A stretch of DNA of 64,000 nt from Nanobdellota archaeon (GTDB lineage: Archaea; Nanobdellota; Nanobdellia; Parvarchaeales; Parvarchaeaceae). The notes beneath the pieces are model-generated. The model saw nothing but the letters and a program-made list of their open reading frames with translations. It made no database searches and was not told where the DNA came from. Shown here in pieces: positions 1 to 64,000 of the stretch. Each line of letters starts with the position of its first letter. Position 1 is the first letter of the stretch. The stretch spans positions 103,376 to 167,375 of the forward strand of contig JAJZBD010000002.1 of NCBI GenBank assembly GCA_021799085.1, read 5' to 3'. A program made the translations under genes and the position numbers.

Positions 1-355
1 TAGGAATTACAGGGGGCACAGGATAAGGGTGGAAAGGCAGCAGATAAATGCACAGGCTCTTCTAAGGATAATAAGCGAGATGGACGAGAACTTTCCAATA
101 TTGAAGGAGGCTTACAGGGAGATAGAAGAGGATGTGATGGACATGAGCAATGCTTCTAGGATATTGAAAGAAATAAAAACAAAAAGCATAAAGTACTCAA
201 TAATAGATACCCCAGTGCCGTCTCCATTTTCACACAGTCTTATAACAATGGGGGAAAGTGATGTGGTCTCAATAAAAAACAAGAAGGAATACGTTAGAAG
301 GCTACATAAACTGGTATTGGAAAAAATAAGGGAGAATCAAAATGCAAATAAATGA
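1..355 (+). CDS. lhr: Lhr-family ATP-dependent helicase, C-terminal part (5' truncated by window)
   Basis: Frame open from position 2 (RNYRGHRIRVERQQ...EAYREI..D.MD...PSPFS), typical archaeal Lhr C-terminus; overlaps a metallophosphoesterase gene as in the conserved Lhr-MPE pair. Confidence 0.8.
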   Translation, partial: RNYRGHRIRVERQQINAQALLRIISEMDENFPILKEAYREIEEDVMDMSNASRILKEIKTKSIKYSIIDTPVPSPFSHSLITMGESDVVSIKNKKEYVRRLHKLVLEKIRENQNANK

Positions 356-1085
356 ATCGATAGAACTTCTGGAAGGCATGCCAATAGCTTACATAAAACC
401 GCTTGATTCACTTATCATATCAGATACCCACCTTGGGTATGAAGGACAGATGTCTGCAGTCGGTACTTTGATACCAAGCAGAAACCTGCAGTTCATAGAA
501 AACATAATACGAAATGCTGCAATGTCTACAGGCGCAGATCGGGTTATAGTAACTGGTGATCTAAAGAACGACTTTTCAGACTTAAAGTATTATGAAAGAA
601 AAGAGATAGGGGAACTTATAGAATTCTGCAAAAGTATCTCCATAAAACTGCTTCTGATAAAGGGAAATCATGACAATTACCTTGATAGGATAAAAAACAG
701 CTATGACGTGGAGATAATAAAGGATTACTTGCTTGAAAAAGGGTTTTACATTGCGCATGGAGACGAGCTGCCGAAATGTGAGGCTGACACTTATATCATA
801 GGCCATGAACATCCAAGCATAATAATCTACAGGTTTACAGGATCGGGGGAGAAAATGAAGGCCTTTCTTTATGGTGATACAAACAATGGGAAAAAGTTGC
901 TGGTTTTACCGGCTTGCAGCATATTTGCACCCGGTAGCAATATAAACGAAGAGAAAAAAGAAGAACTGCTCTCTCCATTTCTAAAGGAAATGTGTGATGT
1001 AAATGAGTTAAATGCAATCTGCATATCGGAAGGAGAAAATCTCAATTTTGGAAAGATAAAGGACTTAAGGGATATAATAGTCTAA
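342..1085 (+). CDS. Calcineurin-like metallophosphoesterase (Lhr-associated MPE)
   Basis: SDTHLG, TGDLK, KGNHD, AHGD, GHEHP motifs. Confidence 0.85.
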   Translation: MQINESIELLEGMPIAYIKPLDSLIISDTHLGYEGQMSAVGTLIPSRNLQFIENIIRNAAMSTGADRVIVTGDLKNDFSDLKYYERKEIGELIEFCKSISIKLLLIKGNHDNYLDRIKNSYDVEIIKDYLLEKGFYIAHGDELPKCEADTYIIGHEHPSIIIYRFTGSGEKMKAFLYGDTNNGKKLLVLPACSIFAPGSNINEEKKEELLSPFLKEMCDVNELNAICISEGENLNFGKIKDLRDIIV

Positions 1086-45445: not shown

Positions 45446-46036
45446 TTATTTGATTAGGAGATTATTAACCTTAATTCTCAAACTTTTATCTAACTTTTGA
45501 AGATATCTTTGTAATTTGTTACCGTCTAATCTTTTTTTCATTTCTTCTAAAATATCTTTTGGAATTGCAACCTTAAAATAAACGAAGTCTATCAACGTCT
45601 TTTCCATATCTGAAACTGGAAGAAATGAATTGCCAATCCGCTTTGCCTCATAGCCGAAGAACATCTTTCTCTGTATATGTCTTATAACTACATTTCTTCC
45701 AAGTATAGCCCTTACCCCGCTCCTAACTTTTCTAGTTGTTATTATGACTGGATTTGTTTCCTGTTCCCATAAATCATGCAATGACAAAGCTTCCTGCAAG
45801 CCGTAATAAAAAGGCTCGAATAAAAATCCTATCGTATCCAGATTATCATTAAAAGAGTAGTAACCTCTTTTTAATCTCTTTATTTCACCGCGCTTTTCCA
45901 GGTTATGCAAAGCAAGCCTCGCGTATTCTCTGCCAGCGCCATGCTGATTTAGGAACATTTCCGCTTCCTTAATGCTGAAGTAGCTCCTATATTTGAAATG
46001 CTCTCTGAACTCTTTCAAGTACTTTGTTTTGCCCAT
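45446..46036 (-). CDS. AbiEi-like type IV antitoxin/regulator
   Basis: wHTH L..RGEIKRLKRGYY, Y.GL..AL..H, SD.EKTLID. Confidence 0.8.
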   Translation of the reverse strand: MGKTKYLKEFREHFKYRSYFSIKEAEMFLNQHGAGREYARLALHNLEKRGEIKRLKRGYYSFNDNLDTIGFLFEPFYYGLQEALSLHDLWEQETNPVIITTRKVRSGVRAILGRNVVIRHIQRKMFFGYEAKRIGNSFLPVSDMEKTLIDFVYFKVAIPKDILEEMKKRLDGNKLQRYLQKLDKSLRIKVNNLLIK

Positions 46037-46662
46037 ACACTTAGCCCCTCTATTATACCTTTGAATGTAGGCACTTCTCCTTCGTACACGATTGCCTTTA
46101 AATCGGCTTCATCTGTTGGTTTTTCGATCTTCTGCAGTGATTCATTTACTATTTTCTTTATTTTCATTTCGCTTACTAACCTAGAAAGGAAATAAACGTC
46201 ATATATGTCCCTTATTCTTTTTCTGCTATTGTAAGCGGCTAGTTTTTCCAATATCAGCTCTTCCGGCTTCAATGTTAATACATCTAATGTGTTTCCGTTT
46301 GCCTTTTGATAAACTGATAGTGTCCCCCTAACCTTTTTTCTAGTTATCTCTAATTTCATTGAAGTTGTGTCGTTTGAAATCTCAGAAAAAAGCGTATTTG
46401 CAGTTTGCCTAAATTTAATTAATTTCAAGCCCCTTCTCTTCAATACCCTTTCTAGCTTAATCTTGAAGTCTTCCGGATATTTAGCGTAAATGTCTATATC
46501 CTCTGAGAATCTTTTCCCACCGTAGCAGCGCCATATCGCTGTTCCTCCGTGTATAACAGCATCGTCTAAGATTTCGTATATTACTTCTATTACTTCGTCC
46601 TGTAATTCCGTCAGGTTCTTCTGTGATTCCCTTTTAAGCCTGTAAACTATTGGTAATTCCAT
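46015..46662 (-). CDS. AbiEii-like nucleotidyltransferase toxin (DUF1814)
   Basis: HGGTAI...Y...RFSEDID, KLEI, EKL.A...R...RDIYD. Confidence 0.88.
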   Translation of the reverse strand: MELPIVYRLKRESQKNLTELQDEVIEVIYEILDDAVIHGGTAIWRCYGGKRFSEDIDIYAKYPEDFKIKLERVLKRRGLKLIKFRQTANTLFSEISNDTTSMKLEITRKKVRGTLSVYQKANGNTLDVLTLKPEELILEKLAAYNSRKRIRDIYDVYFLSRLVSEMKIKKIVNESLQKIEKPTDEADLKAIVYEGEVPTFKGIIEGLSVWAKQST

Positions 46663-50481: not shown

Positions 50482-51621
50482 ATGGTTGAAAGGGCATCTA
50501 AAGGCATCTTGAAAAGGGGAGAATTCATTCTTTTAGATTTAAAGAAAAGGAAGAACGGAAACATTTGGGAATTTCCAGGTGGGCATCTAGAGGCCGGTGA
50601 AACACCGTTTGAAACCCTAGTAAGAGAATTAAAAGAAGAAGTATGTGTAAACGTTAAAGATGCCATATTAATAGGTAAAAGAAACAGTGCATTTTATTCG
50701 AATGTAACTGCTATAGAATATTTCTTTTTAGTTAAAGATTTCTCAGGGGAGCCAAAACCTCTTGATATTGAGGAGAAAGAGATAATTGACGTCAAGTGGG
50801 TAAGGATATATGAGATCATTGATATTCCAAACTTAGGTTGGAGTGTAATAGATGGTATTAGATTTCTTTCCAATGTCTTCCCCAAATACCGTAAAATATA
50901 TGAAAATCTAAAGAAGATGTTTGAATCTAGGATGTCAAAGTCTTTTGATTATTTCTTTTATTCAAACTCGGTGTCAAAATGGTGGAAAGAAGGTAATCTG
51001 AAACCAAAGGAGGTATTCCTAGCGGAGGAGAAATTAATTGAAAAGATCGTTCCATCACTTAAACCGCCAATAATGGAAGTTGGACCTGGGTATGGTAGAA
51101 TAACAAGGATATTAAATAAAAATTTTAAGAAAGTTTATCTTTTAGAGGCTAATCCAGACTTTATAGATCTTCTAGAGAAAAAATTTGGAGATAAGATAGA
51201 ATTTGTGGATGGAACGATGGAATCTATAAATTCAAAGATAAAATTCAATTCTATATTAGCATTTGAAGTCGTTGTGCACACAAAATTATTGGGAGAATTC
51301 ATTGGAGGCGTATCTAAGTCACTGAAAAAAGGCGGTAAATTTGTCTCCTCTTTAGATAATATGAACTCAGATTGGAGAAGGGTGCGTGACACATATAAGA
51401 AAGTATTTGGATTAAAGAATCCAGAATACTATAGAAAGACAGATCTAGAAACTTATCTAAAATTATTAGAAGAGGATGGATTAAAAGTGGAAGAGGTGTA
51501 TGAAATAGGTAAAAATTATACTGTATCCGTACCGATCTTAGGTAGAGAGGTTCCAATTCCTAGCCTTAAACCTATTAAGGCGCCTTATCTTTATTTGATT
51601 GTAGCTAAAAAGCTTAAATAA
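50482..51621 (+). CDS. Nudix hydrolase fused to class I SAM-methyltransferase
   Basis: PGGHLEAGETPFETLVRELKEEV; MEVGPGYGR, LLE, V.VH, LKKGG. Confidence 0.82.
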   Translation: MVERASKGILKRGEFILLDLKKRKNGNIWEFPGGHLEAGETPFETLVRELKEEVCVNVKDAILIGKRNSAFYSNVTAIEYFFLVKDFSGEPKPLDIEEKEIIDVKWVRIYEIIDIPNLGWSVIDGIRFLSNVFPKYRKIYENLKKMFESRMSKSFDYFFYSNSVSKWWKEGNLKPKEVFLAEEKLIEKIVPSLKPPIMEVGPGYGRITRILNKNFKKVYLLEANPDFIDLLEKKFGDKIEFVDGTMESINSKIKFNSILAFEVVVHTKLLGEFIGGVSKSLKKGGKFVSSLDNMNSDWRRVRDTYKKVFGLKNPEYYRKTDLETYLKLLEEDGLKVEEVYEIGKNYTVSVPILGREVPIPSLKPIKAPYLYLIVAKKLK

Positions 51622-54271: not shown

Positions 54272-56401
54272 ATGAAAGCAGGTAAAAAACCTAGAAAAAA
54301 GACTAAAAAAAGCAAAAATATTAGATATGTCCTGCCAATTATTGCCATTGTCATTGTAGCCATAGTTTTAGTTTTGATACTTTCTTCAAACCACACTTCT
54401 AAGAGCAGAATTTTAACACCTCAACCGCATGAAACTGTTCTGTCTTTTAACGGTTTTGTAGTGGCTAACCAGAAAATTAATAACTCGTTTATATTGCCCG
54501 CATACAAATATGAAGCATTTGAAATACCTGTAGCTGCGAATAGTTCCAGTTATTACGCTGGAACCAGTTTTTTGTATTCAGTCAATGCAAATACTTCTGT
54601 AAATGCTGTTCTTATGGACAAAGAACAGTTCAATGCGTTTAACTCTACAAAGAATTTTACTGATAATATTCTCCTACAGAATGGAAAACATAGTATAAAC
54701 GAATTTTTGTCAAACAAAAGTGGAGATTACTATTTAGTTGTATTTGGAAGCAGCCAAGTATCCTCTGTAAATGTACAATTAAATTCAACCACTGATTTAT
54801 ATTCAAATAACAGTGAGTTAACACCAGGATTCTACCGAATTATAAATCAAAGTACTTACTCTGTTCAAATGCCACTAACAATGAATGGCTCTTATGGTAC
54901 TTTTTTGATATCTGCAGTGGCAAATGCATCATTCAATCTAGAAGTATACGATAATTCAACTAATTCGATTGCATTTTACTCTCCAAAGATTACTGTTACA
55001 AACATGTCTGGTACGCAGGTTAATAACAGCTTTGTATATGAATTAAATTTAAGCAAAGGGCAGTATACCTTAAAGATAATTAAATCCAGCAAAAGTCCAT
55101 TGCTTTTATCTACAGTTTACTTATACCTCCCTAAAGCGGTTAACCCTCTCATTGAAAACAGCAATTCATATGCTAGAGGCTTAGCATCCTATGGAGTAGA
55201 GAACAATTCCGGTAAACTAACTAGTTATAGTATAGAAACACCGGCACTTATGGGCTTTGCACACATAAATTCCTTGTATTCTTATTATTCTTCGCAGTTT
55301 GGACAGTCCCACCAGATATCTTTGCAGCTAAACGGCGTGCTGACAGTTACCAACAATAACGGCAATAAATTCAATTACTGGGTTCAAGATACTGCAGACA
55401 TAAACTCACAGACTAGAACCATTTATTTTGAAGACAATGTCTGGAATTTTTCTTATTATCCAATACATCCTTTTTATTTGACGAATCAATCGATAAAAGG
55501 TGATGGTGCCGTGTATTATAGCAATACAAGCTCCCAAGCATTCTATGCAGATTCTACAAACAGCTCTTATTTTGACTTTCCATTGACATTCGCATTAATT
55601 GAAACGGCATACGTTAGAAATGGCACTGGTGTAAATATAAATACATGCTATCAGCCACTGCAAGGCAACGTATACAACTCCAATGTTTTGAATCCCGAAA
55701 TAGGCTGCTATGACAACATAACGATTTCTGATCCAAACGTGGAATCTGCGGAGTTTTACATAACCGGGGCAAACTATCCAAGCTTTAGCCTGCCACAGTT
55801 TTACGATGCTGAGTTTGTATTTGGGGGAGGATACAACGGTTCTCACAGCATTATACAGTCAATAAATGCGCAATTAGGACTTTATTATTATAATGAGTCT
55901 ACTACCAGCTACGTACAATTCCCCTCTTACTATCCGATAGGAGGAGATACTGGCGAGACTGCAAATAATCTAAACATAAATTACAATGGATTATATGCTT
56001 CTGCTACCGCTGGAAATGATAACATTGACTATTTAGGGCAAAGCAATAGTTTTATGCCCATTATAAACGTAAATAATGTTAATTTTACAGATCAAATCAA
56101 CTTTACTAATCTAAATGAGGTACAAAATTACAGTGGGGGTAACTTAACGGGGTTTTCTACATCTGCTGGCACTTATTATACGGATGACATAATAAGTTAT
56201 GATCCATTTAGCCAGTATACATGCATTTTAACCAGTATTAAATCAACTACGCCAAACCTTTATTTAGCTTCAGAAAATATAACTTTACCCTACACATTTT
56301 ACTCTGATTCTACTGTACCATGGGATTTCCAGATATTTTCATCTCCTTTTTACAATTATACTGGTAATTTAAACATACTTCAGAACTGGCAATGCTCATA
56401 A
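54272..56401 (+). CDS. Thermopsin-family (A5) acid protease, membrane-anchored
   Basis: GLASYG, SLQLNGVL, YWVQD, DNVWNFS, DAEFVFGG..NG, DTGET. Confidence 0.85.
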   Translation: MKAGKKPRKKTKKSKNIRYVLPIIAIVIVAIVLVLILSSNHTSKSRILTPQPHETVLSFNGFVVANQKINNSFILPAYKYEAFEIPVAANSSSYYAGTSFLYSVNANTSVNAVLMDKEQFNAFNSTKNFTDNILLQNGKHSINEFLSNKSGDYYLVVFGSSQVSSVNVQLNSTTDLYSNNSELTPGFYRIINQSTYSVQMPLTMNGSYGTFLISAVANASFNLEVYDNSTNSIAFYSPKITVTNMSGTQVNNSFVYELNLSKGQYTLKIIKSSKSPLLLSTVYLYLPKAVNPLIENSNSYARGLASYGVENNSGKLTSYSIETPALMGFAHINSLYSYYSSQFGQSHQISLQLNGVLTVTNNNGNKFNYWVQDTADINSQTRTIYFEDNVWNFSYYPIHPFYLTNQSIKGDGAVYYSNTSSQAFYADSTNSSYFDFPLTFALIETAYVRNGTGVNINTCYQPLQGNVYNSNVLNPEIGCYDNITISDPNVESAEFYITGANYPSFSLPQFYDAEFVFGGGYNGSHSIIQSINAQLGLYYYNESTTSYVQFPSYYPIGGDTGETANNLNINYNGLYASATAGNDNIDYLGQSNSFMPIINVNNVNFTDQINFTNLNEVQNYSGGNLTGFSTSAGTYYTDDIISYDPFSQYTCILTSIKSTTPNLYLASENITLPYTFYSDSTVPWDFQIFSSPFYNYTGNLNILQNWQCS

Positions 56402-56665
56402 AAATGAAGCAAATAAAATATTTAGGCTAAAAATAAACTAATATTTTAACAAATTTTACCATATATAAACTAAATCCTATATAAACAATAGAATTTTAAA
56501 ATTAGTATATGACTGAAGATATTGTTCTTAGATTTACTTTTATCTACTTAAATTAATATATTTTATTTCTAAATAAAAGTTTCAATCATAAAAAATGGAA
56601 GCCTTGAATCAATAATCCTGATTATTATCTTTAATATATTTAAATATCCAGAAATTAAGATTAAT

Positions 56666-57460
56666 ATGAAAGGAAAAATAATCCCTCTGGTTATATTTCT
56701 TGTTATTGCAGTAATTATAATAGCTATTCTGTTTAGTAAATATGTCAGCAAACCCAGTAGCATCACTCTCCCATCAGTTCCACCTAAAAGCATTTTGCCC
56801 GTATTGCTGTCAAATTCACAAACAAGTTATAACCTTGCAAACAAATTTGGATTAACATACAGGCTCTACTTCGTAAATACCTCAAACGGAGAAAACTACA
56901 CAGGTAACTATTCCTTCTTTAATAACGGAAATTTATTCAATATTTCGCTTTATTCTTCACAGCAATTGCTGCCGAATGTTGTAAAAATAGAGCATGTTTA
57001 TTCTTCATTCAATACAACTAAGATATCACAGTGCTTCAAAACTTACTTTGCCAACACCAGTGCAGTTAACAGCACATTGATAGCAGCAATAAACAAAGCC
57101 AACGCCAATTCAACTGAAACATGCTCTGTACCATTAAGTATACCTTCAAATATAAGCGCATTTGATGCGGCTTATTCAATAAATACACTTCCGGCAGTTC
57201 TCTTTACACCAATTGCAGGCTATACCCTCTATTACTTTGATCCAAGTGATATATTCATAAATAGCACAATTAAGTCACTGGGCCAGAGGAATTATTTGGG
57301 GCAAGGCTGCAACTTATACAACATAACCATAAAAAGCTACCCTGAAAACGTAACTTTGATGGAATGCATTTCAAACAAATTCGGCTTACCTTTGTCATCT
57401 GTTGAGGAATCCAGCAACCAAATCTTAATGTCAACCAACATTTCTTCGTTTGAAAGCTAA
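56666..57460 (+). CDS. Membrane-anchored surface protein (Cys-motif family, copy 3)
   Basis: N-terminal TM; YLGQGC...ECISNKFGLP. Confidence 0.7.
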   Translation: MKGKIIPLVIFLVIAVIIIAILFSKYVSKPSSITLPSVPPKSILPVLLSNSQTSYNLANKFGLTYRLYFVNTSNGENYTGNYSFFNNGNLFNISLYSSQQLLPNVVKIEHVYSSFNTTKISQCFKTYFANTSAVNSTLIAAINKANANSTETCSVPLSIPSNISAFDAAYSINTLPAVLFTPIAGYTLYYFDPSDIFINSTIKSLGQRNYLGQGCNLYNITIKSYPENVTLMECISNKFGLPLSSVEESSNQILMSTNISSFES

Positions 57461-57530: not shown

Positions 57531-57866
57531 TTATAAACCAAGTTGCTTCCTCAGATTCACTTTTATAAGTTCAAATGATTCTGTATCCAATTTACCCACT
57601 TTATTGATTAATCTTTCCTTGCTTATAGAAAATGCCTGATAAGTAACTGCAACGCTGTCCACGGTCAATCCATTTTCTGCTGTTCTTAGGATTGGGACAT
57701 TTAAAGGTTCATCAAAACGCTTTTCTCCCTTTGATATCGCGACTACGAAGACCAGAGCATGCCCCACGAAATTTTTTATTATTACTGCGTATCTGTCTTT
57801 CTTTATCTCTGTTCCTTCCCGTTCATTTTCAGGTAATCTAACAAAATATACTTCTCCTTCATTCAT
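57531..57866 (-). CDS. mazF: MazF/PemK-family endoribonuclease toxin
   Basis: GEVYFV.L...G.E..K.R.AVII, GL..DS....Q...ISKERL...VG.L; ATGA overlap with the upstream gene. Confidence 0.85.
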   Translation of the reverse strand: MNEGEVYFVRLPENEREGTEIKKDRYAVIIKNFVGHALVFVVAISKGEKRFDEPLNVPILRTAENGLTVDSVAVTYQAFSISKERLINKVGKLDTESFELIKVNLRKQLGL

Positions 57867-58408
57867 GTATCTTCGGCCGTATCCAGCAGGCTTGCTTCCG
57901 CCCATGCTTTTGATTCTTTTTCTGCTTCTTTACGGATCTCTTCTTGTCTTTCTTTCGTCAATAAGAACGTTTTAGCTAGATTAATCGAATCTACCCTGTC
58001 CTCCAACGAAAGTTTCGGTTTAGCTTCCTTTAACTTTTGATAAGCATTTTTCCAACTAGCATTGCCCGTTCTTATCAAATAAATCATAGTAGTAGCTCCT
58101 TCCACTACGTTATCAGTAACTGAAAAGACTTCTTTCAATTTTTCCACTTGCTCATTGTCTGGCCTAACCTCTTTTGTTTGAATTGTATTTCTGGCGTACT
58201 CATAATAGAGTGTGGTCTCATCCGGAGAATAAGGGCCATGAGTATAGATGTTGAAATCATCTATCTCTTCATTGTTCAAAACCCTCAATAAAAATGCCAG
58301 TTTTTGCAGTTTGAACCTGGTTAAGAAATCTCCCTCTATATTTAATTTGAATTCTAGTGCTTTTGCATATGCTATCAATCTGCTTATTTCCTCAACACCA
58401 TCATCCAT
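57863..58408 (-). CDS. YwgA/Panacea(DUF4065)-like putative antitoxin with acidic C-terminal helix
   Basis: RFKLQKLAFL...F..Y.HGPYS motif. Confidence 0.65.
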   Translation of the reverse strand: MDDGVEEISRLIAYAKALEFKLNIEGDFLTRFKLQKLAFLLRVLNNEEIDDFNIYTHGPYSPDETTLYYEYARNTIQTKEVRPDNEQVEKLKEVFSVTDNVVEGATTMIYLIRTGNASWKNAYQKLKEAKPKLSLEDRVDSINLAKTFLLTKERQEEIRKEAEKESKAWAEASLLDTAEDT

Positions 58409-58410
58409 AT

Positions 58411-58737
58411 TTAGCCTCCTTTTTTATATTCTTTAACCGCATCAAACCATTCGATTATATTTTTTAATGCTTCCTCTCCGCTATCAGTAATTTTATAGAC
58501 AACGAGTGGTTTTTCCTGTATCTTTACTACAAAACCCTTTTTTTCCAAATACTGTATATTTGGCTTTGCTACACCTTCCATTACTCCAAGATCATTTATA
58601 AGATATTTGTAAGGGTAACCATCTTCCTTGTAAATAGATAGTATTGTCAAACTCATTATCTTAGAATACGTTAAAAGCCTATGAAATTTCTGGTCCAGCC
58701 AAGGGGGCCTAATTTGCTGACTGTCCTTTACCTCCAT
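58411..58737 (-). CDS. Winged-helix regulator (PadR/MarR-like)
   Basis: IL......GY.Y.L...L....G......L..KGFV......YKITDSG. Confidence 0.75.
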   Translation of the reverse strand: MEVKDSQQIRPPWLDQKFHRLLTYSKIMSLTILSIYKEDGYPYKYLINDLGVMEGVAKPNIQYLEKKGFVVKIQEKPLVVYKITDSGEEALKNIIEWFDAVKEYKKGG

Positions 58738-58916
58738 ATCTATAAATTTCCTTCATCGTATTTAAGTGTTTATTTTACCACATTATAAATAATTTATCAT
58801 AAAATATAAATAATTTTCAAATTTAAAAGTATTTAAATGAGTTTAAGTCCTAGTATTAGCATGAAGAGCAGGCAATAGCTCTAATAAATGGAAATTGGAA
58901 ATCAAGGTGGTTAAAT

Positions 58917-59099
58917 ATGGATAAAAATCAAAAAATAGTTTTAGAGGGTATAGGCGGATTAATTATGATAATTGCTGGATTATCTTCTAAAAATAAACTA
59001 GTAGCTAATCTTGCCTTTTCTGGAGGTTTAGCTCTTCTAATTTCAGGTATTAAAGATATTTTAGATCAGAATAATGATGCAAACGAAATTCCAGTTTAA
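58917..59099 (+). CDS. Small Gly-rich 2-TM membrane protein
   Basis: SD AAGGTGG; two Gly-containing hydrophobic helices. Confidence 0.6.
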   Translation: MDKNQKIVLEGIGGLIMIIAGLSSKNKLVANLAFSGGLALLISGIKDILDQNNDANEIPV

Positions 59100-59679
59100 T
59101 ACGGAAGATAACAAAAGAGAAGCGATAATATCATATTTAATCTGGAATAAACTAGCAATTAAAAATCTTTATAACATAGATATATCTCGTTTAAAAAATA
59201 ATATTGATCTTATCAAAAATTCGTTATATCCAAAAAGTTTAGACGAACTAATTAACTGCGTCAAAAATCTTCTAGCTAATACCGATTCAAACCTGCCTAA
59301 GATGTTCAATTGTCTTAAGTGGACAAAAACAAAAGTAGATGCAAAATTTGTAGGAACCGTTATGCAAAGAATGGGCGATTTACCGCAATGTGCATTATCA
59401 GGAGATCTGATAGATACCGCAAATTTTGTACAACAAAATAAAAGTTATAATAGCTCTCAATATATAGAAAAACTAACTAAGATATGCGGTTTCTTAGAAG
59501 AATTTCCGCCAATCCTTATATATAAAAGTTATAAAAATCGGAGGAAGGATAAGGCCAAGAATATTAAGTATTACATCGAAGACGGAAATCATAGAGCACT
59601 TGCATACATTTTATGCGGAAACACACAGTTCACAGCTTTCATAGGGAGTAATAAATTTTTAAGTATTTATCGATGTTAA
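59074..59679 (+). CDS. ParB/Srx-fold-like protein
   Basis: PPILI...YYIEDGNHRALA. Confidence 0.6.
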   Translation: MMQTKFQFNTEDNKREAIISYLIWNKLAIKNLYNIDISRLKNNIDLIKNSLYPKSLDELINCVKNLLANTDSNLPKMFNCLKWTKTKVDAKFVGTVMQRMGDLPQCALSGDLIDTANFVQQNKSYNSSQYIEKLTKICGFLEEFPPILIYKSYKNRRKDKAKNIKYYIEDGNHRALAYILCGNTQFTAFIGSNKFLSIYRC

Positions 59680-59778
59680 AGAGTTCAAATAGTAAAAATA
59701 TGCGCCTATACATATGGAAAAATTGTAGAGAAAACCTGTAAAACCATAATTTAAATACTTAAAGATTAAAACATTAAT

Positions 59779-61035
59779 ATGATATTTAAAAGGAGAAATA
59801 ACATCGAGGATAAAAAGAATACAGATAAATCAAATTCTGATGATACTAAAAAGCTAAACAGAAAGACGGATGATTTACTTAAAGAAATAAATTTAAAAGT
59901 TGCAGAAGCCCAACAGGATGATATAAATCGAAATTTAGTAAGGATAGGAACTCCCCAGATGAATAAAATAGGTGTTAAGTTAGGAGATTTTGTTGAAATA
60001 GAAGGCAATAGAAAAACAGTTGCAAAGGTCGACAGGACACATCCCGGCGATTTAGGTCTGAACATAATAAGAATGGATGATACTGTAAGAAAGAATGCAA
60101 AAGTGTCTATAGGTGAAAATGTAATAATCAGGAAAGCGGAGGTTTACGAAGCCGATGTAGTCAACCTTTCTCCATTGTCTACATTTTCAATACCGGGCGC
60201 AGAAAATACAATAGGCAGGTTGCTTTTGGGCAGGGCAGTATCAAAAGGAGACATAATAACGATTGGCAATGAAGGAAAAAACTTATTCTTTCCATTTTTT
60301 GAAGATAGTATAGGTAGTATATTTAATAATCCTGCTTTTTCATTCTCCCAATTAGGTTTATCTAAACTCCATTTTCTCGTCACTTCAACTTCTCCAAAAG
60401 GATTTGTATTTATAACAGAAATTACTGAAATAAAAATATCAAATAAACCAGCTAATTTTGAAGATGATGTTTATGGTCCAATGAAAATTCCGTTCTCTTT
60501 AGGCATAGACACTAGACAATCAGACATAATCTGGCTGGTTGATAATTATGATTCTTTTCCTATACAAAAATCAAGGATTATAGAAACGACTAAGGATTAT
60601 CAGGATAAAATAGACTTTGATTTAATACTGTATAAAGACAGAAAAAGGTATGTATTGAAACATTTTAATTTTTCAGTAATACCCGCAAGTGCAGGTAAAT
60701 CTAAAATAAAAATAGACACAGATGTAGATAAGTATGGTGGTGTGGCAGTATCTATACATAACCCTCCTTCGGCCAGCGCTATTAATATCTATTCTATGGA
60801 AGAAATAATAAAAAGTCCATTTACACAGGCTAAAGAAACGATAGAAGCAATAAATTTATTAATGGCTGACAAGGGTTTTAATTTAAAAGACGATGAGAAA
60901 GGGGAATTAAAGAAAATAATCGCCAGATTAAAAGCTGTTTTGAAATCTAATGACGAAGAAAAGATAAAAATAGAACTTAAGAAATCTCAAGAAATATTAG
61001 ATAAACTTGCAGAAATTATATATCATTTAGACTAA
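59779..61035 (+). CDS. Chimera of Cdc48/VAT N-domain and DnaK-like substrate-binding domain plus lid, no ATPase
   Basis: aa ~36-230 LKVAEA...D..R..VRI...GD.VEIEG.RKTVA.V...IIRMD...RKNA.VSIGE.V; aa ~236-418 PFSLGI.T...P..KS....T..D.Q...IPA..G...I....DVD..G...VS plus helical lid; no Walker A or actin-like ATPase motifs. Confidence 0.8.
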   Translation: MIFKRRNNIEDKKNTDKSNSDDTKKLNRKTDDLLKEINLKVAEAQQDDINRNLVRIGTPQMNKIGVKLGDFVEIEGNRKTVAKVDRTHPGDLGLNIIRMDDTVRKNAKVSIGENVIIRKAEVYEADVVNLSPLSTFSIPGAENTIGRLLLGRAVSKGDIITIGNEGKNLFFPFFEDSIGSIFNNPAFSFSQLGLSKLHFLVTSTSPKGFVFITEITEIKISNKPANFEDDVYGPMKIPFSLGIDTRQSDIIWLVDNYDSFPIQKSRIIETTKDYQDKIDFDLILYKDRKRYVLKHFNFSVIPASAGKSKIKIDTDVDKYGGVAVSIHNPPSASAINIYSMEEIIKSPFTQAKETIEAINLLMADKGFNLKDDEKGELKKIIARLKAVLKSNDEEKIKIELKKSQEILDKLAEIIYHLD

Positions 61036-61138
61036 AAACGATTTGGAATATTTTTATTTTCTAAATCGGCAAATTGAATCAATTAGATACATCAATAAAT
61101 AAAATGAGGGATTAGAAATAGAAATTTATAACTGATTG

Positions 61139-61740
61139 TTATTTTAATCTATGAACAGTGTATTCTCCATATGATTCGGAATCATCTGAATGTACTACTG
61201 GCAAAAAACTATGGTTATCGAACCATTCATTAATTTGGCGTTTTAAATCTTGTTGTGCTGTAAATTTTAACAATACTAAGTATAAGTAGTGTTTTGTTCT
61301 AACATATTTTATTCTGTAGCCTTGCGATGGTGGCAATAATTCCTTTTTTATTATTCTTTTAAATTTAACCTTTTTTATAGGAATTTCTTTCAATGATAGG
61401 TCTGGAATAAATAAATCGCATTTATCACCTTTAATTATAAATTTGGCATCCACTTCTATATTCTTAAATTTAAAAAGAACAGAGGATCTAGAATAACGTC
61501 TAAAGCCCGAATGATAAAGAAAGTTTTTTTCGGGTTTCCATAGTAATGACATACTTAAATAAGCTACTAATATCATATAAATAATTAAAATGAATTTTTC
61601 ATAAAATTATAGCTTAAGATATCTTTTGCTTATAATTTTCTAATAATAAAATAATGATAAAAAAGCGCTTATAGCAAAGACAGAAAGCTATAAAGAACGG
61701 GAAAAAGATTAAACTGTACAAACAAAAATAAAGTCTTCAT
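61139..61740 (-). pseudogene. Decaying membrane protein gene
   Basis: ATG overlaps the R-M stop (ATGA); hydrophobic N-terminus carries a frameshift and two in-frame stops before the surviving 145-aa frame. Confidence 0.45.
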
Positions 61741-64000
61741 TTTAAAGATTCTTCAATAATTTTCTTTTCCTCATCAACTATCCCATAAATTTTATAAACT
61801 AATTCATCAATTTCTTTATCTGTTTTTTCAATTTCCTTTTTTATTTTAGTTCTTTGCTCTGTTTTGTTATTATAAATTTTGTTAAGATGCTTGTTTAAAG
61901 AGATCATTTTATCCGCTAATTTAACAATTGCTAATTGCTGAGAATCAGCCGGGATTCTTATTGGCAACTGTCTTACCTGTCCAATTCTTATTTTAGGAAA
62001 GATATCAGTACCCGTTCTGAACTTTGTTAAATAGTAAAATTGCATTAATTTTGAATTTAGTACACCTAATAAAAATTTAATTTGGATTTTATTATCTTGT
62101 TTTTTCTGTATATCGTATAGAGTTCTTAAATTTATCAAACCTGAATCATCATAGACGGTTGTTAATCTAGTACCGGCTTCTCTAATCAATAATTTTTCAT
62201 TTTCAAATATATCTTTGTTCTTTTGAAAATCTCTAAAAATTCCTTTTTTAATAAATTTAGTTTTTTTGATTCTGTATCTTTCAACATCTTCCCCAGATAA
62301 AATAGGTAAATCATCTTTATTGTTCCTTTCTTCAAAGATTCCCTCGTGTTTTTTACTTAGTTCGATGCCTCTTGTAACAGTAACTAATTTATCCAATGTA
62401 ATAACATCAATAACCATTTTACTAATAATAGTATTTGATATATAATCAGTAGTGCTATCTATTATATAGTTTTTGTCTTTGTATAGGTCTATCTGTTTTC
62501 TTTTTATTTCTTTAAAGCCGTGATTTTTATTTATTTTTGTTTTGAATAAAAATACATTTTCTTTTCTTAACTTTAAATTGAAGCATTTTTCAAGAATTAA
62601 TATACAAGTTGGCATTTGTACCTTTTCGAAAACTTTGTCTCCTAAATCTAAAATATTAACTATTTTAGTATTATCTAATATAAATTCTCTAATTTTAGAG
62701 TACTGATAACCTTTTAAGATTAATGAAGGCACGATAAAACCGAATATTCCTTCTTCCTTAAGTAATGATATAGCTTTCTCTATAAATATACAAAATAAGT
62801 CAAATTGTTTATCTGCCACATGAAAATTTTCTTTATAAAATGCAACGTCTTTTTTGGGTAAATTATGTATTTTAATATATGGAGGATTACCTATTACAAC
62901 ATCAAAACCACTATTTTTCATTATATCCGTAAATTCCTCATTCCACTTGAAAGCTTTATCGCCGGCTATCTTTGGATCATCTATTAGAGAGTTGCCATTC
63001 TTTATGTTCTTTTGCAAAGTAGGTAGCCTCTTACGTTTTTCAGCGATTTTAAGTAATAAATTTAACTGAGCAATTTCAACAGCCTTTTCATCAAGATCTA
63101 CTCCAAATATATTCTTAGTAACTATTTCTACTTTCTTAGAATATGATCCAAAATCTTCAAGCTTGGTTTCATCTAATTTTCCTTTCTCTTTCCAATAATT
63201 CTCTAAAGTGTCGTAAGCTTTCAACAAAAAGCTACCAGATCCACATGCTGGATCTAGAATCTTTATATTTTCAATGTCTTTTTCCTTATGGCTTTTTATA
63301 TATTCTCCAACAGTGTTCTTTACTATATAATCTACAATATAGGTTGGTGTATAGTAGATACCCTCACTTTTTCTCTTAGCTTTACTTGCCTCTAACTTAC
63401 TAGTTTTACCTACTTTTTTAAGAATCCTGCCAAGATACTGCTCATATATATTGCCAAGTATATCTGCGGATATTAAAGAAAAGTCGTATCTATAAAGTCC
63501 ATCTTTAGATTCATAAAGGCCATTAATTACCTCTTCTAAGATATTGTCGTCTATTTTTAGATCATCACATAGGCTATGCTCAAATAATTTACTGTCATAA
63601 TCTTTGTCAAAACTGCTATAAATTTTATTAAGTTGATTCAGAAGATGCCCAGTTTCAGAGCTTGACCATTCTCTTACCTTAGACCTTAACTCTTCCGGCT
63701 CAAGTCCTCTATCCTCAGCGTTTCTAATAAATATCATCCTATCTATTATTCTTTGAACTGCTTCTTCAATATCTTCATCACTTAAATTTCTATTTTTATT
63801 GTTGATTTTTATATTATTATACAGGATTTCTCTAAAATTCGTAATATCATCTAAAAGTGCGGTATCTATTGATTTCTTTAATTCCTTCTTACCCACATAC
63901 TCAGCTTTTTTATCTAACTCTCCCTTTTTTATTGATTCTTTAGACAAAAGCATCAATTCATCTATCTTTTCTAGGTAGTCTTTAGGCTCTATAAAAATAA
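61737..64000 (-). CDS. Type IIG-like (Eco57I/TaqI-class) N6-adenine methyltransferase/R-M enzyme, 5' end outside window
   Basis: GIYYTP, LDPACGSGSFL, IFGVD, GNSL, GNPPY, TaqI-C-like LLGVLNSKL; frame open to window edge. Confidence 0.9.
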   Translation of the reverse strand, partial: IFIEPKDYLEKIDELMLLSKESIKKGELDKKAEYVGKKELKKSIDTALLDDITNFREILYNNIKINNKNRNLSDEDIEEAVQRIIDRMIFIRNAEDRGLEPEELRSKVREWSSSETGHLLNQLNKIYSSFDKDYDSKLFEHSLCDDLKIDDNILEEVINGLYESKDGLYRYDFSLISADILGNIYEQYLGRILKKVGKTSKLEASKAKRKSEGIYYTPTYIVDYIVKNTVGEYIKSHKEKDIENIKILDPACGSGSFLLKAYDTLENYWKEKGKLDETKLEDFGSYSKKVEIVTKNIFGVDLDEKAVEIAQLNLLLKIAEKRKRLPTLQKNIKNGNSLIDDPKIAGDKAFKWNEEFTDIMKNSGFDVVIGNPPYIKIHNLPKKDVAFYKENFHVADKQFDLFCIFIEKAISLLKEEGIFGFIVPSLILKGYQYSKIREFILDNTKIVNILDLGDKVFEKVQMPTCILILEKCFNLKLRKENVFLFKTKINKNHGFKEIKRKQIDLYKDKNYIIDSTTDYISNTIISKMVIDVITLDKLVTVTRGIELSKKHEGIFEERNNKDDLPILSGEDVERYRIKKTKFIKKGIFRDFQKNKDIFENEKLLIREAGTRLTTVYDDSGLINLRTLYDIQKKQDNKIQIKFLLGVLNSKLMQFYYLTKFRTGTDIFPKIRIGQVRQLPIRIPADSQQLAIVKLADKMISLNKHLNKIYNNKTEQRTKIKKEIEKTDKEIDELVYKIYGIVDEEKKIIEESLK

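Follow-up and report, generated by a model that had tools for sequence, protein, structure and literature searches.

Near one end, the 64,000-nucleotide stretch of DNA analysed here (the window; positions 103,376 to 167,375 of the forward strand of contig JAJZBD010000002.1, Nanobdellota archaeon, assembly GCA_021799085.1) carries a gene whose product joins the N-terminal domain of the chaperone Cdc48 to the substrate-binding domain (SBD) of DnaK/Hsp70, without the ATPase motor of either (Table 1). The gene follows open reading frames of 60 and 201 amino acids on the same strand, with a 100-nucleotide gap that holds the element TTTAAATA. Its product, referred to below as the fusion, is identical to database protein P0168, whose contig on record measures 168,008 nucleotides, as does contig C7, on which the gene lies.

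Domain architecture of the fusion

Pfam matches were counted against the curated cut-offs, which CDC48_N, CDC48_2 and HSP70 all exceed. The two Cdc48 families occupy the N-terminal half of the fusion (N-half), and HSP70 (PF00012) matches residues 237–404 of the C-terminal half (C-half) over profile positions 390–558 of 599 only, with an E value of 8.9e-7 and 27.9 bits against a cut-off of 20.6. Pfam returned no match on the fusion for AAA (PF00004), nor for HSP70 profile positions 1–389, the nucleotide-binding part. The models of the complete parent proteins are likewise covered in part: the Cdc48 model TIGR01243 (NCBIfam) at positions 2–168 of 733 only (132 bits against a cut-off of 802.65), and the DnaK equivalogs TIGR02350 and NF001413 at positions ~386–482 only (30.9 and 26.5 bits against cut-offs of 648 and 822). 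The fusion lacks the defining ATPase features of both Cdc48 and Hsp70 and so belongs to neither family, with one domain taken from each. In a sequence search of the PDB, the fusion found the VAT N-domain (1cz4, E 2e-12) and the DnaK SBD (1dkz/1dky, E 1e-5), and the latter match improved to E 9e-8 with a profile of the four orthologue C-halves described below.

A sequence-only reading of the window had proposed a Cdc48 N-domain followed by a DnaK SBD and lid, in an intact frame with both motors absent. Pfam, the structural model and VIA-align bear out that proposal; the motifs quoted for it (PFSLGIDT, FPIQKS, TTKDYQD, IPASAG, DKYGGVAVS and KLAEIIY) are present as written, and the switch from one parent to the other falls where that reading had placed it, in the junction of Table 1.

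Residues 25–230 of the fusion and the opening 206 residues of the resident Cdc48 frame are 69% identical in an ungapped alignment. The CDC48_2 region exceeds the matched stretch of the profile by ~28 residues, and resident Cdc48 aligns there ungapped as well. Like Cdc48/VAT (TIGR01243; 1cz4), the fusion thus has a complete two-subdomain N-domain, and the alignment ends at the N–D1 linker; unlike Cdc48/VAT, it is without the D1/D2 AAA ring, so that there is no hexamer-forming or unfolding motor, and it adds a basic tail of 35 residues for which resident Cdc48 has no counterpart in the comparison. The M-[IL]-F and basic start of this tail is kept in all four orthologue clusters, the remainder is poorly conserved, and identity over the tail is 24–49% among the clusters. 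A full-length AlphaFold2 (AF2) model, made from a 4-row alignment, was poor (predicted local distance difference test score, pLDDT, of 52), and the domain arrangement was not taken from it; the tail has pLDDT 26–28 in that model and is predicted to be disordered as well as basic. A predicted complex of residues 237–418 with residues 1–36, built on the idea that the tail docks into the SBD, spoke neither for nor against docking (score 0.01, mark 0.32, no controls).

From residue 238 onward, the fusion aligns to resident DnaK from residue 377, just past the interdomain linker, at about 27–28% identity. An AF2 model of residues 237–418, whose input alignment comprised the four C-halves and 13 Parvarchaeales DnaK SBDs, has a mean pLDDT of 85 and consists of eight strands and three helices. 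With this model, the best PDB matches in Foldseek are all DnaK/Hsp70 SBDs (E ~1e-9). In VIA-align, the beta-sandwich alone superimposes with Z 10.7–11.4 and a root-mean-square deviation (rmsd) of 2.9–3.2 Å over 103–107 residues, aligned to DnaK 396–504. The four C-halves share a 6-residue deletion before the last strand, relative to DnaK. In common with the DnaK SBD (the C-terminal part of PF00012; 1dkz) the fusion has the eight-strand sandwich and hydrophobic residues at the pocket positions, and its helical C-terminal part aligns to the distal DnaK lid; it differs from DnaK in the missing nucleotide-binding domain (NBD), the replaced arch positions and two deletions of 6 and 20 residues.

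Within the ungapped stretch DnaK 396–441, the residue number in the window protein is that of DnaK minus 158, which allows the peptide pocket to be compared position by position (Table 1). In DnaK, I401, F426, V436 and I438 line the hydrophobic peptide pocket, and M404 and A429 form the arch. Judged by these contact residues, the floor of the pocket appears to be kept and the arch to be lost. At V436 and I438 the fusion residues, Ile and Phe, are invariant in the four orthologues.

Table 1. Features of the fusion gene and its immediate neighbours, pocket positions, and contigs that bridge the junction (positions are those of the window; orthologue residues are listed with the window protein first)
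Feature	Position	Residues	Strand	Observation
Fusion open reading frame, 418 amino acids	59779..61035, including stop	1-418	+	ATG start, TAA stop, frame intact
N-terminal tail	59779..59883	1-35	+	M-[IL]-F and basic residues, then Lys/Asn/Asp-rich segment; alignment
CDC48_N (PF02359), double-psi beta-barrel, first subdomain	59893..60141	39-121	+	E 1.1e-24; 86.8 bits, cut-off 35.1
CDC48_2 (PF02933), second subdomain	60202..60453	142-225	+	E 1.8e-10; 84 residues on profile positions 7-62
Junction	60454..60486	226-236	+	Takes the place of two linkers: N-D1 (Cdc48 side) and NBD-SBD (DnaK side)
SBD-beta, Hsp70-type substrate-binding beta-sandwich	60487..60810	237-344	+	Eight predicted strands; AF2, Foldseek, VIA-align
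Shortened helical lid	60811..61032	345-418	+	Three predicted helices; aligned to distal DnaK lid, 1dkz chain positions 142-213
Pocket, DnaK I401		I243		I, I, A, L
Pocket, DnaK F426		I268		I, I, L, L
Pocket, DnaK V436		I278		I in all four
Pocket, DnaK I438		F280		F in all four
Arch, DnaK M404		R246		R, K, N, G
Arch, DnaK A429		T271		T, T, L, T
TTTAAATA, archaeal TATA-box-like	59750..59757		+	~26 nucleotides upstream of ATG; sequence read
T-rich tract TTTTTATTTT	61052..61061		+	17 nucleotides after the stop codon; sequence read
Small hydrophobic open reading frame, 60 amino acids	58917..59099		+	Heads same-strand gene group; no family match (Pfam, PHROGs)
Upstream neighbour, 201 amino acids	59074..59679		+	No significant match (Pfam, PADLOC, NCBIfam, PHROGs)
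Convergent downstream neighbour, 145 amino acids	61139..61576		-	No family match (Pfam, PADLOC, NCBIfam, PHROGs); 6 clusters found
Contig X4 record 26	60191-60558			Bridges junction; 0 differences
Contig X11 record 5	60402-61109			Bridges junction; 7 differences
Contig X15 record 10	60247-60808			Bridges junction; 10 differences

Orthologues, constraint and unequal histories of the two halves

A protein-collection search at E <= 1e-3 gave 17 matches, of which 13 cover the N-half only and four are full-length orthologue clusters (46–64% identity) that cover 92–100% of the query. The fusion's own cluster at 90% identity has 21 members. P0002 (63% identity, nine members; for example NCBI protein MCW1295950.1) is a Candidatus Parvarchaeum tengchongense entry that NCBI labels a hypothetical protein, P0003 (50%) is found on 22 contigs, and P0004 is 47% identical to the fusion. 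Cluster members are drawn from ENA, Logan, NCBI and JGI records, and their frames are intact, with lengths of 418–428 residues in every case except one of 435. The 118 invariant positions of the four-orthologue alignment are distributed over both halves and run through the junction. Contigs from three studies, which are assembled sequences and not raw reads, bridge the junction itself (Table 1), and the stretch 59000–61700 is present in 20 runs of seven studies, labelled as mine drainage, mine tailings or sediment metagenomes. Chimeric assembly is excluded, since independent assemblies and diverged orthologues share one junction, and the gene is a genuine one of acidophilic Parvarchaeum archaea.

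For a comparison within the population we used 13 full-length members of the fusion's own cluster, setting aside two fragments and six unlisted members. Among these 13 sequences, 29 variable sites lie in residues 1–236 and six in residues 237–418, and none of the 13 carries a frameshifted or truncated allele. Compared with resident cdc48, the N-half has 74% DNA identity, with ~1.0 synonymous substitutions per site (dS) and ~0.20 nonsynonymous substitutions per site (dN), giving a dN/dS of ~0.19 (Nei–Gojobori), which argues against neutral decay. Each half is a complete binding module, bounded at domain borders and without a motor, and both appear to be under purifying selection. The gene is rare among genomes and close to a contig end, stopping ~3.6 kb short of where contig C7 terminates, as would suit a non-functional product of illegitimate recombination between cdc48 and dnaK, or an assembly chimera. 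Such an origin is nevertheless hardly credible given four diverged clusters with intact frames and the same junction, two of which have 21 and nine members from several archives, the bridging contigs of three studies, C-half deletions common to all four orthologues, the small number of C-half polymorphisms, and the low dN/dS. The sequence-only reading had named a chimeric junction, a C-half without an HSP70 match and a one-off fusion with dN/dS near 1 as the ways in which it could fail; the junction proved real, the C-half does match HSP70, the fusion recurs, the N-half ratio is far below 1, and hardly any variation is seen in the C-half within the population.

The resident genome contains an intact cdc48 with an open frame of 765 amino acids on contig C1, consecutive grpE, dnaK and dnaJ genes on contig C7, and two proteasome subunit genes, so the intact cdc48 and dnaK that the sequence-only reading had proposed to confirm elsewhere in the genome are both there. 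Because the genome retains the full canonical chaperone set, the fusion is an addition to that set and not a replacement.

In a search of the order with the C-half, the fusion was found in one of 39 genomes. Thirty other genomes of the order gave weak matches of 22–30% identity within frames of ~600–660 residues, which we took as DnaK; one further weak match lies in a 425-residue frame near a contig start, and the same search gave nothing in eight of the 39. A search of 1.84 billion representatives returned 1492 matches, and among the best 150 listed, P0004 alone spans both halves. With the C-half profile, 391 pattern matches in metagenome contigs and 139 in viral contigs were obtained, none of which was confirmed. 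A scan of genome contigs found 37 loci whose best segment lies over the N-half only, read as ordinary cdc48 genes, and in the Atlas every cluster returned for the C-half is HSP70, the representatives being 184–256 residues long, possibly fragments, and a lead only. The fusion gene is accessory, because its orthologues lie in genomes or contigs other than the species representatives.

The two halves differ in history. The C-halves are 41–63% identical among themselves and 23–28% identical to Parvarchaeales DnaK SBDs. With a mutual identity far above that to DnaK, and two deletions common to all, the C-half is read here as having a single origin followed by strong divergence. The motif DYQ and the terminal KIY are common to the C-halves and Parvarchaeales DnaK, and a local dnaK is suggested, though not proven, as the donor.

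For the N-half, a maximum-likelihood tree was built from seven fusion N-domains and 30 Cdc48 N-domains, the latter being 30 of 38 N-domain loci (L019, L034, L036–L039, L041 and L042 were excluded, two partial matches among them). The fusion N-domains occupy four places inside the Cdc48 clade of this tree, which has long branches, notably that of P0004. The P0004 N-domain groups with L029 (support 99/95) and that of P0003 with L014 (90/75), and those of P0002 and the window group fall in a Parvarchaeum polytomy that also contains resident Cdc48. Monophyly of the fusion N-domains is rejected, the constrained tree being worse by 58.6 log-likelihood units (p-AU 6.7e-6, approximately unbiased test). 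The identity rankings of the two domains also disagree: P0002 and P0003 are the closest pair by N-domain (80%), with P0004 as the outlier (45–48%), and by SBD-beta the window protein and P0002 are closest (69%), with P0003 the most distant from the window protein (48%). At nine polymorphic sites of the N-half the alternative is the residue of resident Cdc48, including a patch at 101, 109, 110 and 117 that is Cdc48-like in P0170 and P0172. Because the N-halves nest at several places among Cdc48 N-domains, the simplest reading suggests that the N-half has repeatedly been converted, or re-captured, from resident cdc48. In the window's own strain such conversion is not recent, since dS between the two copies is ~1.0. 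On this account gene conversion within a domain fusion would clearly have produced an evolutionary mosaic, and similarity to the host Cdc48 is hinted at as a possible target of selection.

Related proteins and possible roles of the fusion

Searches of the full-text literature found no description of the fusion, in line with the sequence-only reading, and supplementary architecture tables (e.g., those of PMC11090510) could still list it. The architecture is apparently undescribed and probably a new combination of known parts. Archaeal metagenomes also contain ATPase-less Cdc48 N-domain proteins (P0014, P0017, P0020, P0061, P0069 and P0111) that likewise use the N-domain without AAA; it is accompanied there by extra copies of itself, by a zinc-ribbon-like head or by a short C-terminal domain of unrelated type, and in no case by an Hsp70 SBD. 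P0014 and P0020 have tandem N-domains, with two or three copies among P0014, P0017 and P0020 and a zinc-ribbon-like head in one of these; P0061, P0069 and P0111 combine an N-domain with a similar C-terminal domain of ~60 residues. The Cdc48 N-domain seems to be a widely reused portable module in small archaea. The passages of PMC11090510 consulted here describe Hsp70-like NBD/SBD units fused to McrB/McrC homologues in bacterial CoCoNuT defence systems, and so set a precedent for the use of Hsp70-derived modules outside chaperones, in conflict-related proteins; those units are bacterial and retain the NBD, and no fusion to a Cdc48 N-domain is described in these passages.

A natural, motor-less join of two textbook client-binding modules, each of which normally works in connection with an ATP motor, shows that such modules serve as free-standing parts, and provides a simple system for asking what ligand the archaeal Cdc48 N-domain, still poorly known in this respect, binds. 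In isolation, VAT-N and Hsp70 SBDs each bind unfolded polypeptides in the absence of ATP. The role that we favour, tentatively and at a little under an even chance, is that of an ATP-independent holdase or adaptor, a bivalent polypeptide binder, because the SBD and the N-domain would each be able to bind polypeptide without a motor. The SBD pocket, with its hydrophobic floor, would bind extended hydrophobic segments in a simple on/off equilibrium free of nucleotide control, and the N-domain would bind the same ligands as that of resident Cdc48, whether unfolded clients or cofactors. The fusion might then hold clients, or connect Hsp70-type clients to the Cdc48/proteasome route, as a strain-variable accessory beside a complete canonical chaperone set.

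Several observations weigh against this role. Aligning the lid together with the sandwich gives an rmsd of ~17 Å to DnaK, so the modelled lid is placed differently from the closed DnaK lid, a difference in orientation seen in the prediction only. The shared 20-residue deletion at the start of the lid removes the helix A region and early helix B. Both arch positions are replaced among the orthologues (R/K/N/G at M404, T/L at A429), and the L1,2 loop, which follows position 404, is polar and different in every orthologue; because of these changes in arch and loop, peptide binding could be weak, or directed instead at a single specific ligand. Of the two halves, the N-half varies more in the population, which relaxed constraint or turnover would fit equally as well as a ligand-binding role. 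Finally, the gene is present in one of 39 genomes of the order and, with the C-half profile at E <= 1e-12, in one of 401 sampled from the phylum, and the fusion is not a core proteostasis factor.

Some of the same features could instead point to a mimic, competitor or decoy of resident Cdc48, which would compete for the ligands of the Cdc48 N-domain and could shield particular proteins from Cdc48/proteasome unfolding, or bait or sense foreign factors, of viral or host origin, directed at Cdc48 and DnaK, with the diverged SBD supplying target specificity or a read-out. The fusion N-domains track lineage-specific Cdc48 N-domains and not one clade of their own, P0170 and P0172 have mosaic patches that approach the Cdc48 sequence, the gene is accessory and varies between strains, and the SBD has a polar, variable L1,2 loop. 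The gene also lies in a region of low GC content (0.28–0.31 against 0.36 for the genome) beside MazF, AbiE and Type IIG restriction–modification (RM) genes, and one X4 contig appears to skip 58817–61679, weak evidence from a single contig with a 35-nucleotide side. We nevertheless regard this role as rather unlikely: gene conversion between paralogues requires no selective reason, at a dS of ~1 the fusion's N-half and resident cdc48 have not been homogenised recently in the strain analysed, PADLOC models match neither the fusion nor any of the three genes closest to it, the C-half profile scan found no relative in viral contigs, and no Cdc48 N-domain ligand is known for these archaea. More specifically, an N-domain kept matched to the host Cdc48 by recurrent conversion and a fast-evolving SBD bait could let the fusion, as guard or decoy, capture or report factors of viral or host origin directed at the client-binding sites of Cdc48 and Hsp70, a proposal that we consider improbable. 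If the mimic or decoy role is true, chaperone mimicry joins the known conflict strategies of ultra-small archaea, and with a guard or decoy DPANN archaea would have an immune or counter-immune component of a new type that works without ATP.

The fusion might also be a dedicated chaperone for the products of its neighbours, either for MazF, as in toxin–antitoxin–chaperone (TAC) systems, or as a partner of the 60-, 201- and 145-residue proteins. TAC systems encode a SecB-like, ATP-independent chaperone near a toxin–antitoxin (TA) module. Fragments of the genes for the 201-residue protein, the fusion and the 145-residue protein all occur in runs of other studies (X4, X11 and X17), a 15,602-nucleotide contig is on record both for the 145-residue protein's own cluster and for the fusion member P0177, and the putative MazF antitoxin (181 residues) is unusually long. 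The likeness to TAC systems is, however, in concept only. The fusion lies outside the MazF operon, on the opposite strand and 1.9 kb away, and has its own TATA-like box and oligo-T tract, so that the layout gives no hint of the coupling to MazF that the sequence-only reading had considered; no SecB-like protein was matched in family searches of the window proteins, and the neighbours have no family match. Homologues of the 201- and 145-residue proteins (three and six clusters, respectively) are recorded on no contigs sized like those of P0002 (351,933 nucleotides) or P0003 (69,531 nucleotides), an indirect proxy for linkage. We find such a dedicated role very doubtful, and return to the ATP-independent holdase or adaptor as the preferred one.

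Genomic surroundings

The position of TTTAAATA fits archaeal promoter geometry, and on this consensus and spacing the fusion would have an independent, leaderless transcript. The tract TTTTTATTTT is a possible archaeal terminator. The 201-residue protein encoded upstream had been called ParB-like in the sequence-only reading, a name that finds no support from profile hidden Markov models in Pfam, NCBIfam, PADLOC or PHROGs; in the Atlas this protein retrieves no clusters other than 'hypothetical protein' and DUF6309, at 0.95.

One X4 contig appears to join position 58816 to 61680 and so to skip 2863 nucleotides (58817–61679) that contain the 60-residue, 201-residue, fusion and 145-residue reading frames; the flanks of this join have only weak AT-rich repeats. 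The segment may be a cassette-like presence/absence indel, for which a single contig with a 35-nucleotide side is a hint only. GC content over 42000–64000 drops stepwise from ~0.37 to 0.28 toward the contig end, which lies 633 nucleotides past the window, and this fits a strain-variable or acquired region.

The 'defence-like island' of the sequence-only reading holds in part: its two TA modules and Type IIG RM gene are interspersed with glycosyltransferase and surface-protein genes. PADLOC-DB 2.0 gave no family for the fusion, the 201-residue or the 145-residue protein, and a strong match for the RM methyltransferase only. At 57531–58737 (minus strand), a three-gene unit encodes a winged-helix regulator (108 amino acids), the 181-residue protein and a MazF/PemK toxin (E 9e-19); the 181-residue protein resembles the C-terminal part of DarG only weakly (E 1e-4 to 5e-4), is unusually long for a putative antitoxin, and its frame overlaps that of MazF by 43 nucleotides. 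The second TA module, at 45446–46662 (minus strand) where the GC content of the window is lower, consists of an AbiEi-like antitoxin (196 amino acids) and an AbiEii nucleotidyltransferase toxin (215 amino acids).

Between these modules, at 54272–57460 (plus strand), are genes for two Asn/Ser/Tyr-rich proteins of 709 and 264 amino acids, each with one N-terminal hydrophobic segment and both with many N-x-S/T sites; neither has a family match, and they are probably glycosylated surface proteins. A NUDIX hydrolase domain is fused to a class I methyltransferase in a 379-residue reading frame at 50482–51621 (plus strand), beside GT2 and GT4 glycosyltransferases. The Type IIG restriction-methyltransferase gene at 61737–63998 (minus strand) runs off the window (PADLOC REase_MTase_IIG, E 1.7e-106). 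X4 and X15 contigs join ~61800–61828 to ~62875–62899, skipping ~1.05–1.08 kb in the C-terminal part of this gene, and its specificity region looks to have been swapped or to be missing in other strains.

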